64,000 nucleotides of DNA from Phormidesmis sp. GTDB taxonomy: Bacteria; Cyanobacteriota; Cyanobacteriia; Leptolyngbyales; Leptolyngbyaceae. Positions within the stretch are counted from its first letter, which is position 1; each line of letters opens with the position of its first letter. The notes under the pieces are model-generated. The model saw only the letters and a program-made list of their open reading frames with translations. It searched no databases and was not told the DNA's origin. Both the position numbers and the translations under genes were made by a program. The DNA is taken from positions 2,080,001 to 2,144,000 of the forward strand of contig CBDFJR010000002.1 of the NCBI GenBank assembly GCA_965248535.1, read 5' to 3'. This document shows positions 26,080-64,000 of this stretch, in pieces.

Positions 26080-27108
26080 TTAACCGACTGCTTTCGTTTC
26101 CAAGAAGGTGTACCGCAACAAGTTGTAGGTCAAGTTCTTCAATCCCAATTGTGCCGTTGCCCGCTGAATGCCAATCGAACGCAGCAGTTTGCCACCCATC
26201 TGCATCACCCAACACCCAAACACATGCTCGACTTTAACGCGCGTGGTGGACTTAGTGCGATTAGACTGCTTCTGTTCTTCCGTTAACGGGCGGTTGCGAT
26301 ATCCCCGCTCATGAATCTGACTATCGAACTGCATCAACTTCAACGTTTCCTCAATTGCTTCAGCGCGGTAAGCACTATCTGCCCAAATCTTGTCGCTCTC
26401 ATTGTCGTCATCGAGGAGTTGACCCAAAACTTGAGAATCATGAACCGAGGCATCGGTCACAGCATACTGACGAATCAACCCATGTTGGGCATCAATGCTG
26501 ATGTGATCTTTGTAGCCGAAGTAGCTCTTACCCCCCTTTTTCGTCCATCGAGCATCGCTATCTTTCTGAGAACGTTGATGCGGGTTGTCTTGCCACGATG
26601 GGGGAATCTCTCCTTGCTTAATCTGTTGATTCTCATCCTTGCTGTTGTGCTGCTTGGGAACGGGAATCAATGTAGCATCGACAATTTGTCCTCCTTGAGC
26701 TGCGTAGCCTTGCTGAATCAAATACTCATCGAATTGCTCAAACAATGGTTCAATTAATGCTTGCTCTGTTAACTGCTTACGGAACAACCATACCGTTGTT
26801 GCATCTGGAACCTCATCTGCTAACCCAAAATCGAGAAACTGCATGAAGGATAAGCGGTCACTCACTTGATACTCCAAGGCTTCATCACTAATGTTGTACA
26901 ACTGTTGCAACACCAGCAGCTTAAACATCACAATCACATCCATCGGCTTGCGTCCAGCATTACTCTTGCGCGGTTTGTCATGAATGGGTTCGAGCAAGGG
27001 GCGAAAAGTTTCCCAGGGGACAATCTCATTGAGTCGCACCAGTAAGTCTTGCTTCTGGTTCAGCTTATCTTGGCGCGTTTCCCAATCCCAAAATCCAGGC
27101 TGTGTCAT
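26080..27108 (-). CDS. IS5-family DDE transposase
   Basis: VPDATTVWLFR, IVDATLI, FGYKDH, ADSAY, RVKVEHVFG. Confidence 0.95.
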   Translation of the reverse strand: MTQPGFWDWETRQDKLNQKQDLLVRLNEIVPWETFRPLLEPIHDKPRKSNAGRKPMDVIVMFKLLVLQQLYNISDEALEYQVSDRLSFMQFLDFGLADEVPDATTVWLFRKQLTEQALIEPLFEQFDEYLIQQGYAAQGGQIVDATLIPVPKQHNSKDENQQIKQGEIPPSWQDNPHQRSQKDSDARWTKKGGKSYFGYKDHISIDAQHGLIRQYAVTDASVHDSQVLGQLLDDDNESDKIWADSAYRAEAIEETLKLMQFDSQIHERGYRNRPLTEEQKQSNRTKSTTRVKVEHVFGCWVMQMGGKLLRSIGIQRATAQLGLKNLTYNLLRYTFLETKAVG

Positions 27109-27267: not shown

Positions 27268-27353
27268 GTCTAACAATCCCGTTGCACACCGACCGCTAAG
27301 TTAGTCGGTGAATCCGAGAGGTTGCTAGCGGCGGGTGAACGGGGTCGTTAGAC
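27268..27353 (+). other. Integron attC-like recombination site (solitary)
   Basis: GTCTAAC...GTTAGAC cores; arms CCCGTT[G]CAC[A]CCG[A]CCGC pair with GCGGCGGGTGAACGGG, leaving extrahelical bases; 86 bp. Confidence 0.8.
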
Positions 27354-57622: not shown

Positions 57623-59311
57623 TTGAACCTCTCTGTCAACGCTCAACCCCTTTCTAACCAACCGTTTCCTTTTGATTTGATTGAGGATGCTCTCGCGGAT
57701 CTGAAGGCAGGGAAAGCGATCGTCGTCGTCGATGATGAAAACCGAGAAAACGAGGGAGACGTGATCTGTGCAGCCCAATTTGCGACTCCAGACATGATCA
57801 ACTTCATGGCAGTCTATGCGCGGGGTCTAATCTGTCTAGCCATGACGGGCACTCGTCTAGATGAACTAGATGTGCCACTCATGGTGCGAGAAAATACTGA
57901 CAGTAATCAAACAGCCTTTACGGTTAGTATTGATGCTTCTCCCAGAGTCGGAGTCACGACAGGGATCTCTGCCGAAGATCGCGCCCGCACGATTCAGGTA
58001 GCTCTCGATCCAGACACTCAACCTGCGGATCTTCGCCGTCCGGGTCATATATTTCCGATTCGAGCCAGAGAAGGCGGCGTTTTAAAACGTGCGGGTCACA
58101 CCGAAGCTGCCGTCGATCTGTCTCGCCTTGCGGGGCTTTATCCGGCTGGGGTGATCTGTGAAATTCAAAACGCCGATGGCTCAATGGCACGACTGCCTGA
58201 GCTTTTAAAGTACGCTAAGATGCACGATCTAAAGATCATCAGCATTGCAGATCTGATTAGCTATCGGCTGCGACACGAGCGCTTTGTGTGCCGCGAAACC
58301 ATCGCTGACCTGCCCTCCCAGTTTGGGCAATTCAAAATTTACGCTTATCGCAATCTGCTCGATAACTCTGAGCATGTGGCGATCGTCAAAGGTGAGCCGA
58401 CAGAGTTTGGCGATCGCCCGGTGATGGTGCGGGTGCATTCAGAATGTCTGACGGGCGATGCTCTCGGTTCGCTGCGCTGTGATTGCCGGATGCAGCTACA
58501 AGCTGCCCTAAAAATGATCGAAAATGCGGGAATGGGCATTGTGGTCTATCTGCGGCAAGAAGGGCGAGGCATTGGGTTAGTCAACAAGCTCAAAGCCTAT
58601 TCGCTGCAAGATTTAGGACTGGATACCGTCGAGGCCAATGAGCGGTTGGGCTTTCCGGCTGATCTGCGAGATTATGGCGTTGGAGCGCAGATTCTCAATG
58701 ATTTAGGCGTTAAGCAAATTCGTCTGATCACCAACAATCCCCGTAAGATTGCGGGACTGAAGGGCTATGGACTAGAGATGGTGGATCGGGTGCCGCTGTT
58801 GATCGAAGCCACGTCCTACAACTCGTCTTATCTGGCGACCAAAGCCGAGAAGATGGGTCACTTGTTTTTGCAAACCTATCTGGTGACGATCGCGCTGCAC
58901 TTTGAGCACGATGAGTCAGTGACCGAACGCTATGAGCGCCTCGAAAAGCTGCGGCATCTGGCGAAGGTTTATGATTTGACGCTGCAAGAAGAAGCGCGAC
59001 CCGTGGCATCGGCGCTGTTTGGTGAGCGATCGCTGATCGTGCACCTGGGGTTTGAGCAAGCTTTGGTCAGCGATGCCGATTGGTATCGATCGCCTGATCA
59101 CCCCTATATTGCGGCGATCGGGCAAATTCTCGACAATGTGACCTGTTGGTCGTCGGTGCAAACGCTGGAGTTTATTATTTCTCCGGGGTCTGACCCGTTA
59201 GTTGGGTTGCAGGTGCAGCTTGATCGACAGACCTTTGAGAGCGAGCAATTGCCCTCCTCGATCTTTGACGCGCTAGAGACTCAAACGATTTATAGTTTTT
59301 CTAGAGATTAA
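57623..59311 (+). CDS. ribBA: Bifunctional DHBP synthase / GTP cyclohydrolase II
   Basis: [41 protein letters not shown]-terminal extension. Confidence 0.96.
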
Positions 59312-59403
59312 AGCCAGTTCACTCTAGGGATCTCTGCCTGCTAACCGATGTGACGACCCAGTCCGATGGGTGACTCTAGTCGGGTAGGTTTTGTGCAGCC
59401 ATC

Positions 59404-60132
59404 ATGCGGGCCAAAAAGTCGCTCACGGTCACCCCAGAGATTCAGCAAAAATTGATTCAGATCCACGATCGGCTTTGTCAGGCTTACGGGTGTCCGATTC
59501 CCTACTTTCACGAGCTAGACCCTCTGAGTGAACTGGTTTCAGCGTTGCTGTCTCACCGCACTCGCAATGCCGATTCTGCCAACGCATTTCATGAACTGCG
59601 GCGACAGTTTCCCACTTGGGAGCTAGTGCGCGATGCTCCTGTTGCCGAAGTTGAACAGGCGATCGCTCGCTGCACTTGGGCAGAGCAAAAAGCTCCGCGC
59701 ATTCAACAGATTTTGAAACTGATCGGCGATCGTCGGGATGGAGATCTCTCGCTAGACTTTCTCAAAGACCTTTCTGTTGCAGATGCCAGAGCGTGGCTCG
59801 AATCGCTGTCGGGAGTCGGGCCTAAAACCAGTGCTGCGGTGCTGTCGTTTAGTGTGCTGCGTCGTCGCGCTTTGCCCGTTGACAGTCATCATCACCGAGT
59901 TGCAATTCGATTGGGGTTGATTGGTAGCACGATCGCGGTTGCCCCTGCCCACGCCATTTTAGAAGCTCAGTTGCCTCTAGACTGGACAGCCCAGCAAGTC
60001 TATGACAATCACGAAGTCTTAATGCTGCACGGTCAGCGCTGCTGCTATTACCAAAACCCTGCTTGTCAGCGCTGCCCGGTGCTTGACCTCTGCCCCTTTG
60101 GACAAGCTCGACACCCTCAGGGAGTTGCATGA
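59404..60132 (+). CDS. HhH-GPD / endonuclease III family DNA glycosylase
   Basis: LSGVGPKTS (HhH), PVDSH, C-terminal Fe-S motif CC...PACQRCPVLDLC. Confidence 0.88.
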   Translation: MRAKKSLTVTPEIQQKLIQIHDRLCQAYGCPIPYFHELDPLSELVSALLSHRTRNADSANAFHELRRQFPTWELVRDAPVAEVEQAIARCTWAEQKAPRIQQILKLIGDRRDGDLSLDFLKDLSVADARAWLESLSGVGPKTSAAVLSFSVLRRRALPVDSHHHRVAIRLGLIGSTIAVAPAHAILEAQLPLDWTAQQVYDNHEVLMLHGQRCCYYQNPACQRCPVLDLCPFGQARHPQGVA

Positions 60133-60195
60133 AAATGAAATCCCAATTTACAAGTTTTCGTCAGCTTTTGGAATTGAAGCGGGTACTTGATCGAT

Positions 60196-60388
60196 CCGTA
60201 ACTCCCTGAGCGCACAGAGCCTGAATTTCAAGCAGGATAATTTCCGAAATAGGGGAGTTATTCTGTGAAGATTCGGTGTAGAACCTAAAAAAAACAGGAG
60301 TTATCCGGTTTCCACACAGCATAATTTCCTTGTGGAGGGCATTTATCCTGTTTGTGAGGAGTTCAAACGGCAGAAATAGTAGTTATGC
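60196..60388 (+). other. Long imperfect hairpin ending in a GTTATGC core (atypical attC or attI-like site)
   Basis: CAAGCAGGATAA (60229) pairs with TTATCCTGTTTG (60343); GGGGAGTTATTCTGTG (60252) pairs with CACAGCATAATTTCCT (60315); core at 60382-60388. Confidence 0.45.
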
Positions 60389-60699
60389 CGCCAGCCCGAC
60401 AAGCAATCAGCCCGGTCTTTTAGAGTTGTCGTTCAACCGAATATCAACGGTATTGAGAACGGGTTGGTGAATGCGAAAGTCAACGGTTGAGACAGTGATC
60501 GCGCGGACTTATCGGTGTTGGCTTTAGCACAGATGTTTCGTTGAGATGGGGAAGTGACAGACCGCATAGGATTTCAATCCGTCCGCGAAGGCACAGTTCT
60601 TCGATTCTTGGCTATCCTAGCTTCGTCTTTTCACGTGACATTGGATAGGGCGAGAGTTGGGCTGGCGAAGTTGCGAGATCATTAGTTGAGTCAAGCAAC

Positions 60700-60787
60700 G
60701 CATAACAACCCGATTGGAGCGGACTGTTGCTCGATCTCAGTGAATTTGCAAAGATTACTCGCAGCCGCTCAATCGGGAACGTTATGC
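60700..60787 (+). other. attC-like site
   Basis: GCATAAC...GTTATGC; CCCGATTG[G]AGCGG[A]CTG pairs with CAGCCGCTCAATCGGG; 88 bp. Confidence 0.8.
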
Positions 60788-60995
60788 CGACCAAGTTGTC
60801 TGGGTGGGTGCAAGCGGAAGATTAATGGTAGGGTGCGATCGCTACGTATGAAGTTTTAGTGAAAGCCACGAATTCAGCTTCCTAGCTTTCTCCAAGCGAT
60901 AAGGCGGGTGTGCAGGGATCAAGCCAAATTCAGTTCTAAATTTCCTCGTCAAAAATGATGCTGACTATTGTTCGTAAAACTGCCCAGGTACTTGA

Positions 60996-61829
60996 ATGAA
61001 ACCAAATTCTGTATCTCAATCACAAAACTCAATCAAGCCTTTATGGTTCAATCGCAAGCGTGTTTTTCAAATAGGATTAATCCTCGGCTTATTTGCTGGA
61101 ACAGGTGTATCTGCGCTAGGAGGTTTTAGCTATTTGCAGCTAACTAAAGATTCTGTATCCATTAGGGATGGTCAGCTATATTTCAGCAAGTCTACCAGTA
61201 CTAATAACACTGTTGCCAGTAATGGTGGTGTTGCCAATAGTGGCAGCAACTCTCAAGTTAGTAGAGATAATTCGTCTAATAATACTAGTAATAGCCCAGA
61301 GATCCGAGGTAATTACAACACAATTACAATTGTGTCTAATCGAGATTTGCCAGGATTTAGCGAGAAAGGATATAGCACACCTCCTCCTGATTTAAGCAAG
61401 TATTCTCAAGCCAGTAATTTTCAACTTGATAAACTGGTATCTGGGTCTTCAGATACAGGTAGGATAGATTTTGGCAAGAAGGAAATTGTTATTTTAGGAA
61501 AACAGTATACTTCCTCCTTTGATGTTAGATATGACGCTAATTCAAGTCGCTTTGTCTTTCAACTGGATGGCACTCAAAAAGCGGCACTCATACAGTTTGG
61601 ACTTCCAGATTTAAAATCTGGAAACGGTAGTACTGGTGCCTACACAGTCAAGATTTACGGTGATGGCAAATTGTTATGGACAGGGGAATGCCAACGAAGC
61701 CGAGATAGTCAGATTATCTCAACCAGCTTATCAATCCCAGCTGTGAAATTATTGACGGTTGAGGTAACTAGCAATGGACAGAATGACAGTAATCTTTTCT
61801 TCACATCTGCACAACTTCTGAAGGAGTAA
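60996..61829 (+). CDS. AT-rich membrane-anchored protein with possible NPCBM/NEW2-like C-terminal domain
   Basis: TM segment, S/N-rich linker, FGLPD..TVKIYGDGKLLW...LTVEV. Confidence 0.7.
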   Translation: MKPNSVSQSQNSIKPLWFNRKRVFQIGLILGLFAGTGVSALGGFSYLQLTKDSVSIRDGQLYFSKSTSTNNTVASNGGVANSGSNSQVSRDNSSNNTSNSPEIRGNYNTITIVSNRDLPGFSEKGYSTPPPDLSKYSQASNFQLDKLVSGSSDTGRIDFGKKEIVILGKQYTSSFDVRYDANSSRFVFQLDGTQKAALIQFGLPDLKSGNGSTGAYTVKIYGDGKLLWTGECQRSRDSQIISTSLSIPAVKLLTVEVTSNGQNDSNLFFTSAQLLKE

Positions 61830-61997
61830 AGAGCGTTCTCTACAAGACTGACTACTTTGCTTCTACATATCTCTAGTAGCAAGACTCTAGTTTTGCAACT
61901 AAAAAACACATTTAGAGAGCAAAAATCAACAAATCTAAGCATCACTACAAAATCTTTCTTCCCAATCAGGCAACGACAATTTACCCGGATTAAACTC

Positions 61998-62333
61998 ATG
62001 ACTCAATTACCTGCGCCTAAAACGACAAAGTTCTGCCAAGAATGTGGAGAATCCATCAATGCCAAAGCCGAAATCTGCCCTAGTTGTGGTGTTAGACAGC
62101 CAGGGATGGAAGTAGAAAGAAAAGGCAAAAAAGATCGAATTACTGCCGCTTTGTTATCGTTTTTCGGAGGTACGTTTGGAATCCAGTATTTTTATCTAGG
62201 AAAAACTCTGGCAGGAATTTTGTGCCTGGTTTTTTGTTGGTTCTTCTTCTTCCCAACTTTCCTCGGTTTTCTTGAAGGAATCATTTTATTGCTCATGAGT
62301 GATGCAGCGTTCGATCGCAAGTACAACAAATAG
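61998..62333 (+). CDS. Zn-ribbon plus TM2-domain membrane protein
   Basis: KFCQECG..AEICPSCG; KDRITAALLSFFGG.FGIQYFYLG; ATG 61998 preferred. Confidence 0.88.
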   Translation: MTQLPAPKTTKFCQECGESINAKAEICPSCGVRQPGMEVERKGKKDRITAALLSFFGGTFGIQYFYLGKTLAGILCLVFCWFFFFPTFLGFLEGIILLLMSDAAFDRKYNK

Positions 62334-62387
62334 TGCGATCGCTGACGAGATTGTAGGGAATGATCGTGGTTGCTGCCTCTATGTGCG

Positions 62388-62476
62388 GTCTAACAACGCT
62401 CATGCACGCCGACCGCCGAGAGTTGATCGGTTATGATGCAAAGGTTGTCTACGGCGGGTGATGGGCAACGTTAGCA
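62388..62476 (+). other. attC-like site
   Basis: GTCTAAC...GTTAGCA; GCTCAT[G]CAC[G]CCG[A]CCG pairs with CGGCGGGTGATGGGC; 89 bp; same subfamily as 27268. Confidence 0.8.
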
Positions 62477-62780
62477 TTCCGTTTGCGAGTCGCCTTTAAA
62501 CAGAAAGAAAAAAGTAAAGAGAGATAATGGAGTCCGGTCAACAGTTAAAAGGGCATGAATAGTCAACTATTCAGACAGTTATGCCGTCACAGACTAGGTG
62601 ACAATTATAGCGGTTCTTCTTAACATGCAGTACACGTTGGACAGACAGAGCAAGGGTTTCAGCTTGTTATCTGTACCGAACCAGATTAGTAACCGCTATA
62701 AGCTTTCTAGAAGCTTGAAAAATCAGAAGATGATTGTAAACCAGAGCTTTGTCCAATCAAGTAGATTAGGAGACAGTTCA

Positions 62781-63146
62781 GTGGCAGAAAATATCAACAA
62801 TGACCTCAGAAACTCAAATATTGCTAACTTCGCAAATGAGGTTTCAGACAATGCGCGACTGCAAGCGAACCAATATATTAGTCAATCTGAGCGCCAGAGG
62901 ACTCTTATAGAAACAGCTAATGAGATTCAACAACTTCTTCGACAATTGGAGCAAACTAATCCCTTAGCGACAGAGCTTGAACAACGAGCTTATGTTAATA
63001 TTGCCACCAGTCCGGATCTTAAAGAACGCGCAATTGCTGCCTTAAAAGAAGGTGGAGAGACCGCTATTGAGGAGTTCTTTTTAGAGAATAAATACCTCAA
63101 AGTTGGTAAATCGGTTGTCAAAGGTTGGCTTCAAGCTAGCAATTAG
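62781..63146 (+). CDS. Hypothetical protein resembling the C-terminal helical domain of cyanobacterial pentapeptide-repeat/LRR proteins (start uncertain; frame open from 62598)
   Basis: AGGAG RBS before GTG 62781; TLIETANEIQQLLRQLEQTNP...ALKEGGETAIEEF..NKYLKV. Confidence 0.6.
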   Translation: MAENINNDLRNSNIANFANEVSDNARLQANQYISQSERQRTLIETANEIQQLLRQLEQTNPLATELEQRAYVNIATSPDLKERAIAALKEGGETAIEEFFLENKYLKVGKSVVKGWLQASN

Positions 63147-63243
63147 AGACTTCGGTGAGTTGCCAGCAGTTTGACAATCTGCTCTGAGGTAGACGAGTTC
63201 CTGGATTAAAATGCAGGGATACAGTTGCAACGAGGTTAAGGCA

Positions 63244-63519
63244 ATGACGGTTCGACAACCCCGCTATCCCAAAGAAGAATACGCTCGCCGTGGCAATGAG
63301 ATTTACGAGTCCCAAGTGCGATCCAAAGTCGAAGAGGGCAACCACGGCAGAATTGTGGCGATCGACATCGAAACCGGAGCCTTTGAAGTCGCTGACGACA
63401 TTGTGACCGCATCAGCACAACTCCTCGCCAAGTATGCGGATGCCCAAACTTGGTTTATCCGCATTGGGCATCGGGCGGTCTACCATTTTGGCGCACGGAG
63501 CCTGAAAGAAACGGTATGA
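63244..63519 (+). CDS. Small conserved hypothetical protein (DUF5678-like)
   Basis: RRGNEIYE..R..VE....GRIVAIDIETGAFEV; stop overlaps the next start (ATGA). Confidence 0.75.
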   Translation: MTVRQPRYPKEEYARRGNEIYESQVRSKVEEGNHGRIVAIDIETGAFEVADDIVTASAQLLAKYADAQTWFIRIGHRAVYHFGARSLKETV

Positions 63520-63893
63520 TGCATGGCTCTGTGAATCAGAACTGTGAGGCAATACTTCCAGTTGTAGTGAAGAACGATACTAAAACGCAACTCGTTGATG
63601 CAGTCATTGATACAGGTTTTTCGGGCTTCTTGACCTTGACTTCTAGCGCGATCGCCGCTCTAGACTTAACCTGGAAAGGGCGTGATGTTGCAACGCTGGG
63701 AGATGGCACGTCTTGTATTTTTGAGGTTTATATCGCGGTCGTCATTTGGGACGGACACTATCGCACGATTGATATCAATGAATCAGAAACAGTCCCTTTA
63801 GTCGGGATGCGCCTATTGCGAGGATACGATCTGCACATTCAGACCATTGAGGGCGGTTCGGTTACGATCAACGCATTGCCGATCGTGGTTTAG
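63516..63893 (+). CDS. Clan AA (retropepsin-like) aspartic protease
   Basis: AVIDTGFSGFLTL catalytic DTG, flap TLGDG, PLVGMRLL. Confidence 0.88.
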   Translation: MMHGSVNQNCEAILPVVVKNDTKTQLVDAVIDTGFSGFLTLTSSAIAALDLTWKGRDVATLGDGTSCIFEVYIAVVIWDGHYRTIDINESETVPLVGMRLLRGYDLHIQTIEGGSVTINALPIVV

Positions 63894-63912
63894 AAGCTAC
63901 TGGTGAGGCACG

Positions 63913-63997
63913 GTCTAACAACGCAGTGGAGTGGACAGTACAGAGTCTTCGCGCTTCGTTTAAGTTTGCTCGCCGCCGCTCACTTTAGCCATTAGCA
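63913..63997 (+). other. attC-like site with degenerate right core
   Basis: GTCTAAC 20 bp after the protease stop; AGTG[G]AGTGG pairs with CCGCTCACT; right core ATTAGCA; 85 bp. Confidence 0.65.
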
Positions 63998-64000
63998 TTC

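Follow-up and report, generated by a model that had tools for sequence, protein, structure and literature searches.

At the right end of a 64,000-nucleotide stretch of the genome of Phormidesmis sp. (5.03 Mb, 5 contigs) a few genes are separated by three imperfect palindromes, and the question that this locus raises is whether these are recombination sites of an integron and, if they are, how they came to stand there without an integrase. The stretch as a whole, C2:2080001-2144000, is here called the window; coordinates without a prefix are window positions, and those with the prefix C2 or C5 are contig positions. We conclude, with high confidence, that the palindromes are genuine attC sites forming an integrase-less array, i.e. 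an attC cluster that has no integron integrase (CALIN), and that this array is an integron whose integrase has been deleted and whose head site is partly preserved. Taken alone the array is an ordinary CALIN, an example of an element type that is already known. Its interest comes mainly from a family of leader sequences, one of which stands at its head, and from its junctions, which can be followed in three species. The three sites, with their scores in a covariance model (R1), are:

60700-60787, plus strand: attC site 1, 88 nt, GCATAAC...GTTATGC; R1 86.6 bits; canonical fold of the bottom strand at -22 kcal/mol, probability 0.97
62388-62476, plus strand: attC site 2, 89 nt, GTCTAAC...GTTAGCA; R1 77.0 bits; canonical fold of the bottom strand, probability 0.80
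63913-63997, plus strand: attC site 3, the last of the array, 85 nt, GTCTAAC...ATTAGCA; R1 66.6 bits; probability of the canonical fold 0.04

The first-pass annotation, which was made from the letters of this DNA alone, had seen three palindromes in exactly these places and with these ends, had put two of them 20 and 55 bp behind stop codons, and had read all three as attC sites of a CALIN. The places, the ends and the distances are right (sites 2 and 3 start 55 and 20 nt behind the stop codons at 62333 and 63893), and the reading is borne out by the anatomy of the sites, by their covariation and by model matches that are linked to integrase genes. The AT-rich plus-strand genes that it described are there as well: GC content is 0.38-0.43 between the sites vs 0.51-0.56 in the flanking genes, which we count in favour of an integron, and the larger open reading frames (ORFs) between the sites are all on the plus strand, as are the sites.

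With blastn, 12 further copies of the three sequence types were found, scattered over both large contigs. A MAFFT alignment of the 15 sites (A1) was out of register at its 5' end, and four of its rows were removed, three in which the R'' box is replaced by the end of an intron (C2:1133916, C2:1136860 and C5:1939405) and one with a 5-nt deletion (C5:2444091). The remaining 11 genomic copies, the three window sites among them, form alignment A2, the basis of model R1, which still finds the four removed rows (74.2, 46.6, 40.1 and 54.2 bits). The structure drawn by hand on A2 has a 7-bp R box, an unpaired spacer of 3-4 nt (columns 8-10 and 80-83) and a 15-bp stem with single bulges at columns 17 and 25. 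In this structure 88.3% of the cells pair, vs 25.8-43.4% after a shift of the 3' partners by 1-3 columns; 10 of the 22 pairs have changed on both sides, and the covariation score was reached by none of 500 shuffles, so that the pattern goes beyond chance.

The AAC and GTT triplets (columns 5-7 and 84-86) show little or no variation among the 11 copies, and few stem positions besides them are invariant. The R and L boxes pair around an unpaired central spacer, with freedom of sequence as long as pairing is kept. The G that had been noticed ten bases after the AAC is the invariant column 17, and a second bulged base, an A, follows six nt on. Both lie on the 5' arm of the top strand, in terms of the bottom strand the R''-L'' arm and thus the correct one for extrahelical bases, and they read T-N6-C there. 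The cores RYYYAAC and GTTRRRY are complete in sites 1 and 2, and site 3 has ATT for GTT. The sites stand at the 3' ends of cassettes, oriented with the ORFs, and are divergent from the integrase gene (intI) where there is one. Canonical attC sites such as attCaadA7 and the Vibrio VCR are the standard of comparison. The window sites share with them the AAC/GTT cores of R'' and R', the unpaired central spacer, the L box, a variable terminal loop and, on the bottom strand's R''-L'' arm, two extrahelical bases with a spacing of six nt; unlike them, they have T-N6-C and not T-N6-G, and the second family, that of site 2, has a third bulged base.

Folding of the bottom strands, a check proposed in the first-pass annotation, supported two of the sites and failed for the last. 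With the canonical-fold probability taken as the pairing of the AAC and GTT triplets in a bottom strand trimmed to the exact site ends, sites 1 and 2 fold canonically and site 3 does not; when 5 nt of flank are included on either side, sites 2 and 3 fold freely no better than shuffles do (z +0.49 and +2.11) and without the canonical hairpin. Rfam, searched with 58000-64000 at E<=10, returned no more than three matches, all by chance, to microRNA and small nucleolar RNA models and far under the gathering scores.

Since no integrase is encoded at the array, any movement of its cassettes must be catalysed in trans. The genome holds two intact integron integrases, both on the contig of the array and about 1.01 and 1.98 Mb from it:

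C2:161487-162425, plus strand: intact intI, TIGR02249 467.9 bits against a cut-off of 265
C2:1131581-1132513, minus strand: intact intI, TIGR02249 466 bits against a cut-off of 265

The two are 68% identical to each other. A genome-wide search with TIGR02249 at E<=10 gave four matches, none of them closer than 0.7 Mb to the array. The supposition that the integrase would be elsewhere or lost is true in both senses, as these two genes lie elsewhere on the contig and the leader at the head of the array is truncated, its sister copies carrying a relic of intI. The other proposed search, for attC sites with a covariance model, was run with R1 and finds the three sites and many more: 50 matches in the genome at E<=1 and 43 at E<1e-3, 32 of the 43 from outside the training set. 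Two R1 matches lie on the divergent side of the integrase at C2:161487-162425 and five on that of the integrase at C2:1131581-1132513, which is the canonical layout of an integron. In 80 foreign IntI loci, mostly from Leptolyngbya-, Nodosilinea-, Pseudanabaena- and Phormidesmis-like cyanobacteria and also from other phyla, R1 gave 52 matches at E<=1e-3: none shares the strand of intI, and 51 stand upstream of its start. Of 31 related genomes, 30 have R1 matches at E<=1e-5, and in 17 an integrase exceeds the cut-off. The window sites are kin to sites that stand beside integrases.

At the window locus an attI-type leader and attC sites are present and intI is absent, so it falls short of a complete integron, which has intI, attI and at least one attC at one locus. 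It is a CALIN (at least two attC sites on one strand and less than 4 kb apart) in that its three sites start 1688 and 1525 nt from one another, and in that the genome-wide TIGR02249 search found no nearby intI gene or recognisable pseudogene, a relic of a few codons being below the reach of that search. The array had been expected to run on past the window. With filters off, the best score of R1 in the next 16 kb is 10.6 bits (E 0.64), and that DNA holds the DUF3352 gene, a radical-SAM gene and other ordinary chromosomal genes; the array therefore has three sites and ends with the window.

At the head of the array stand:

60237-60381, plus strand: leader B, a truncated attI-type leader of 145 nt that ends at the crossover, ...GGCAGAAATAGTAG/TTA (the slash marks the crossover point), and is 79-83% identical to eight other genomic copies
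60382-60388, plus strand: core site GTTATGC heading the array; the crossover falls between G60382 and T60383

No attC was found between the stop of the nth-like gene to the left (60132) and site 1. The same core, in GTTATGCCGC, ends the attI block beside both integrases. Leader B has nine copies in the genome, each of them heading an integrase-less array; the homology stops at GTTA (...GGCAGAAATAGTAG/TTA) in all nine, and an attC match follows on the same strand within 2.5 kb in all nine. Of the eight other copies, seven are longer, at about 1 kb made up of a leader of about 300 nt and a repeat of about 700 bp, and the eighth is interrupted. In the distal leader of six of the eight full-length copies lies, on the opposite strand, a relic ATGAATCAG... 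that is identical at 43-44 of 57 nt to the first 19 codons of an intact intI of a congener (G004) and at only 15-20 of the next 60; it has an in-frame stop at codon 7. In G004 leader B (75% identical) directly abuts that intact integrase of 319 aa, divergently, on a 1488-nt contig that ends at the crossover. Together with the relics, this leads us to regard leader B as the attI side of a type of integron whose integrase has been deleted in the Phormidesmis genome. The window copy is without the relic and is further truncated than its sisters.

The full-length leader has four promoter-like boxes, all directed towards the array, vs 1.0 expected, the best being TCGAAA-18-TATAAT. The window leader keeps only part of these boxes, the best one being without its -35 side there, and a promoter scan of the window array gave no excess (5 sites vs 5.4 expected). 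In four array heads Rfam had no match at E<=0.01. Some attC sites that seem to be single also sit behind a copy of the leader (C2:377165, C5:1939321 and C5:45608).

The integrons that still have an integrase use another attI block, which differs from leader B, is 100% identical over 180 nt among its copies and ends in ...CAATCGTTATGCCGC. The copies are at C2:1132759-1132945, C2:161065-161244 (minus strand) and C5:797639-797818 (minus strand), the third being without an integrase. Such full identity of the block, next to integrases with no more than 68% identity, suggests that it was converted or copied recently. Between the second integrase and its attI block there are about 3.5 tandem copies of a 40-nt repeat.

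The locus can be compared between species, and for this the genes and cassettes are needed:

59404-60132, plus strand: left flanking gene of the endonuclease III / HhH-GPD DNA glycosylase family, 242 aa; Pfam HhH-GPD and EndIII_4Fe-2S
60383-60781, plus strand: cassette 1, 399 bp, no ORF reaching 60 aa; paralogous to the cassette that comes first in the complete integron at C2:1132942-1134002
60782-62470, plus strand: cassette 2, 1689 bp, two plus-strand ORFs, GC content 0.38-0.40
60996-61829, plus strand: ORF of cassette 2, 277 aa, with an NPCBM-like C-terminal part (Pfam 23.4 bits, cut-off 23.9)
61998-62333, plus strand: ORF of cassette 2, 111 aa, zinc ribbon and TM2 domain (37.6 bits, cut-off 27.9)
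62471-63991, plus strand: cassette 3, 1521 bp, a 130-nt leader block and three ORFs
62598-63146, plus strand: ORF of cassette 3, 182 aa, no Pfam or NCBIfam family
63244-63519, plus strand: ORF of cassette 3, 91 aa, no Pfam or NCBIfam family
63516-63893, plus strand: ORF of cassette 3, 125 aa, clan AA aspartic protease type (TIGR03698 51.4 bits, cut-off 57.35)
63992-64000 and on to C2:2144121, plus strand: right flank, beginning with another copy of the 130-nt block, 85% identical to 62471-62600, and continuing with the 3' end of the DUF3352 gene

The left flanking gene also matches NCBIfam NF053634 and nth, both under their cut-offs, and the stop of the DUF3352 gene lies about 200 nt past the end of the window. 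These two genes, nth and DUF3352, are a convergent and adjacent pair in six congeners and in one other genus. Two closely related species (G002 and G007) have an element at the same locus, with two and one attC sites, respectively, compared to three in Phormidesmis sp. (G000). The left flanks of G000, G002 and G007 align up to GTAG/TTA and then continue as TTATGCC, TTAAATT and TTAGCCC, and the right flanks can be aligned starting at G/TTAGCATTCC, each behind a different attC site. The cassettes in between are unrelated but for one gene distantly related to that of 91 aa (71% over 42 residues). The comparison of cassettes among relatives that the first-pass annotation had called for thus gives differing cassettes between the same G/TT junctions in three species, and as the flanks are conserved and end at G/TT we count this in favour of the integron. 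In four other congeners the spacer between nth and DUF3352 holds an unrelated gene of 207 aa, and in the other genus (G011) the two genes almost abut, with no attC match. An empty site was not found among 10 related loci, and in three genera nth was not within 10 kb.

A contig from a public sequencing run (X2, depth 54.8) follows 1023 nt of cassette 2 without a difference and then runs across the core into 21 nt of the end of a leader, a joint that skips exactly the 399 nt of cassette 1. It is a weak hint that in this run cassette 2 sits directly behind a leader. Other joints in the contigs of four public runs, one that goes back 1504 nt at 64000 and those from 62474 to 63244, are explained by paralogous copies and not by circles.

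Several observations weigh against an integrase-deleted integron, or against parts of that reading. The short side of the X2 joint, 21 nt, is under the standard of 31 nt and is near-identical in the sister copies of the leader, so the joint may come from a sister array. The training set of R1 includes the three window sites, which makes their own scores circular, and the support for them therefore rests on the genomic matches from outside the training set and on the 80 foreign loci. On the bottom strand, C stands as the first extrahelical base in place of the usual G; sites with T-N6-C are reported as good substrates of IntI1 in the relevant part of PMC3053210. Site 3 has A for the conserved G of the crossover, and its minimum free energy is -5.2 kcal/mol at the low canonical-fold probability given above. 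It looks crippled in these predicted folds, and cassette 3 is for that reason probably fixed; the equivalent last sites of G002 and G007 read GTTAGCG and GTTAGCA. As to the head, leader B has been seen next to an intact intI once only, on the 1488-nt contig that ends at the crossover, and blastn found it in none of the 80 foreign IntI loci, two of which have the other attI block. The integrase of the G004 type is only 55-57% identical to the two resident ones and was not found intact in the Phormidesmis genome, and given this divergence the resident enzymes may or may not use leader B.

The element sits between the endonuclease-III-family gene and the DUF3352 gene and ends at the third attC. 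Its truncated attI-type leader (60237-60381) is followed by the crossover core G/TTATGC (60382) and then by three plus-strand cassettes, every one with an attC at its end. As in other integrons, the hairpin would be formed by the bottom (minus) strand of an attC and would have AAC/GTT in its R box, a spacer that stays unpaired and two extrahelical bases in the order T-N6-C. Cutting and exchange at G/TT by an IntI tyrosine recombinase would release a cassette as a circle or insert one at the head site, and the enzyme would be provided in trans, either as one of the two intact resident IntI proteins or as an incoming one. It would presumably be IntI that made the G/TT junctions, and the array may still be recombinable in the Phormidesmis strain.

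Could the palindromes be something else? Dispersed repeats of the repetitive extragenic palindrome (REP) or miniature inverted-repeat transposable element (MITE) kind, or terminators, with no relation to integrons, would agree with sites that are spread over both large contigs, often as single copies, and that fall into three sequence families. However, no terminators with a T run were found (0), only AAC/GTT is conserved while the stems covary, attC-homing group II introns have inserted in the bottom strands of attC sites, and the strict association with intI in strand and side, in this genome and in the 80 foreign loci, refutes an explanation that has hardly any probability left. More serious is the idea that IntI put cassettes excised from the resident integrons into a chromosomal GTT (a secondary site, attG), and that there never was an integron platform here. 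Insertion of attC into the genome is, according to the sections of 10.1101/2022.09.11.507474 on this matter, efficient at GWT sites and a proposed origin of small CALINs and single sites; the left junction of the window array is a clean G/TT, cassette 1 has a paralogue in a complete integron and no integrase pseudogene was detected near the array. Such an event would join a cassette to ordinary DNA at GWT with no att-like context, but the left flank is not anonymous chromosome: it belongs to the nine leader copies that always end at the crossover, and these are linked to intI both by the relic in the full leader and by the intact gene that the leader abuts in G004. Moreover, no empty site was found among the 10 related loci, and the congeners without an array have the unrelated 207-aa gene between the flanks. 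With the leader family found, and with a head that is a specific repeated attI-type sequence and not an arbitrary GWT, we have rejected secondary-site insertion as improbable.

A different matter is whether the array has been inert ever since. It may have been fixed when the integrase was lost, and the differences between species may be due to ordinary deletion, gene conversion or homologous recombination in the flanks. An intact integrase of the cognate type was not found in the genome, site 3 is degenerate, the flanks are similar enough between species to let a whole array be exchanged by homologous recombination, and G007 has the array and no integrase that we could find in a genome 92% complete. 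Against this stands that both breakpoints are at the core G/TT in three species, where the left side continues in three different TTRRRY sequences and the right side stands behind three different attC sites, a pattern not expected from random deletion ends, that related copies of cassette 1 come first behind three different heads, and the hint from the X2 contig. We consider an inert relic possible and rather unlikely.

The integrase-deleted integron may also be part of something larger. The repeat of about 700 bp borders a live integrase as well as the relics, and may have caused the deletion of the integrase or have carried the platform. Tentatively, we suggest a "distributed integron", possible and less probable than not, in which an integrase-deleted platform, consisting of the 700-bp repeat, the 19-codon relic of intI and leader B with its promoter-like boxes towards the array, has multiplied to about nine loci, each having a cassette array of its own, that are still served in trans by two integrases with a different attI. 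If this is true, cassettes would circulate among a dozen heads, and the orphan attI sites would be functional, heritable landing pads and not debris. The repeat itself (85-92% identical between copies) is found at C5:938915-939620 (L129:2415-3120) and in about 17 further copies, one of which, C2:1130863-1131571, abuts the stop of the second integrase. It encodes an intact protein of 123 aa without a Pfam or NCBIfam family, which has 406 homologues in a large protein collection; those with a named source are all hypothetical, and Phormidesmis records have many copies per genome. One end of the repeat carries a palindrome, GTTAGGGAG...CTCCCTAAC.

How new is this? Integrons in Cyanobacteria are reported in parts of PMC2426708, PMC4889954 and PMC8618304, and a Cyanobacteria-specific attC covariance model in a part of PMC8352920, so the novelty of the locus had been overstated in the first-pass annotation. 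The relevant passages of PMC4889954 and PMC9024848 deal with CALINs, their small size and their co-occurrence with integrons. According to the passages in the former (Cury et al. 2016), half of all CALINs are in replicons that encode IntI, intI pseudogenes lie near only 15 of 279 CALINs, and attI was not searchable there. The window array is like the CALINs in the parts of Cury et al. (2016, PMC4889954) and IntegronFinder 2 (PMC9024848) that describe them in having three attC sites on one strand, no intI nearby, cassettes of unknown function and complete integrons in the same genome, and unlike them in that its head is preserved as an attI-type leader and that sister arrays in the genome have one common junction of integrase deletion. 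With sedentary chromosomal integrons that have decayed integrases, as treated in parts of PMC2426708 and, for Xanthomonas, of 10.1101/2025.06.18.660453, it has in common a fixed locus in related species, a variable cassette content and the loss of the integrase. The difference is that here the integrase is deleted to 0-19 codons and not mutated, and that the platform has about nine copies per genome. The small integrase-less arrays and single attC sites lacking integrase (SALINs) that are proposed to arise by insertion of attC at attG, described in passages of Loot et al. (10.1101/2022.09.11.507474), are similarly scattered, with IntI elsewhere and a G/TT junction, but the window head is a specific, repeated attI-type sequence.

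A full-text search of the literature found no description of several integrase-deleted attI platforms in one genome, with the proviso that supplements may list this or related genomes. That 60237-60381 is a truncated copy of an attI-type leader, and that this leader heads nine integrase-less arrays in the genome, is new here. The value of the locus is that of a well-resolved natural case, with both ends of an array fixed at G/TT in three species and differing cassettes between them, and with a head that can be traced to an attI whose integrase was deleted. It bears on a question that Cury et al. (2016) left open, namely where CALINs originate and whether their exchange with integrons of the same genome goes on. 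With its nine leader-headed arrays and two live integrases, the genome is also a compact system in which recombination in trans at a non-cognate attI could be tested, and the same system holds the third, integrase-less copy of the other attI block and attC-homing introns.

As to the cargo, cassette 1 is 86% identical over its first 225 nt to the first cassette of the complete integron, and the two attC sites are 83.5% identical; a third copy is the first cassette in an array at C2:1675295. In cassette 3 the protease-type ORF overlaps the 91-aa ORF by ATGA. This pair (63244-63893) has paralogues at C5:1397137, C5:200945, C5:358254 and C2:610331, with at least two copies beside attC sites, and a multi-copy module of this kind is recurrent cassette cargo. 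The 130-nt block at the start of cassette 3 exists in three copies (62471-62600, C2:2143992-2144121 and C5:1169975-1170097 on the minus strand; 79-85% identical). It always starts at the TT of an attC core and has an A/G-rich stretch and a conserved mini-ORF of 11 codons, MESGQQLKGHE in the window copy. It is present in two of the 41 genomes of the family that were searched (G000 and G007), and has no Rfam match.

When the whole window was searched with R1 and filters off, the three array sites and one lone site were found. The latter, at 27268-27353 on the plus strand, scores 63.0 bits and folds well (-23.3 kcal/mol for the bottom strand). A transposase-like ORF of 342 aa (26080-27108, minus strand) has its start codon about 160 nt away, the site follows closely on the 3' end of a gene that resembles those of ABC transporters (27534-29396, minus strand), and no copy of the leader was seen alongside.

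Finally, some attC sites of this genome have been invaded themselves. A group II intron at C2:1133221-1133925 (L010:3141-3845) matches the Rfam models group-II-D1D4-3 (127.8 bits), D1D4-1 (63.7 bits) and Intron_gpII (43.5 bits), and introns are found at no fewer than eight other attC sites, for instance at C2:1136850, C2:1673031, C2:609302, C2:156869, C5:45600, C5:1939411, C5:933048 and C5:793652. Their placement matches the behaviour of group IIC-attC introns (PMC3001079).

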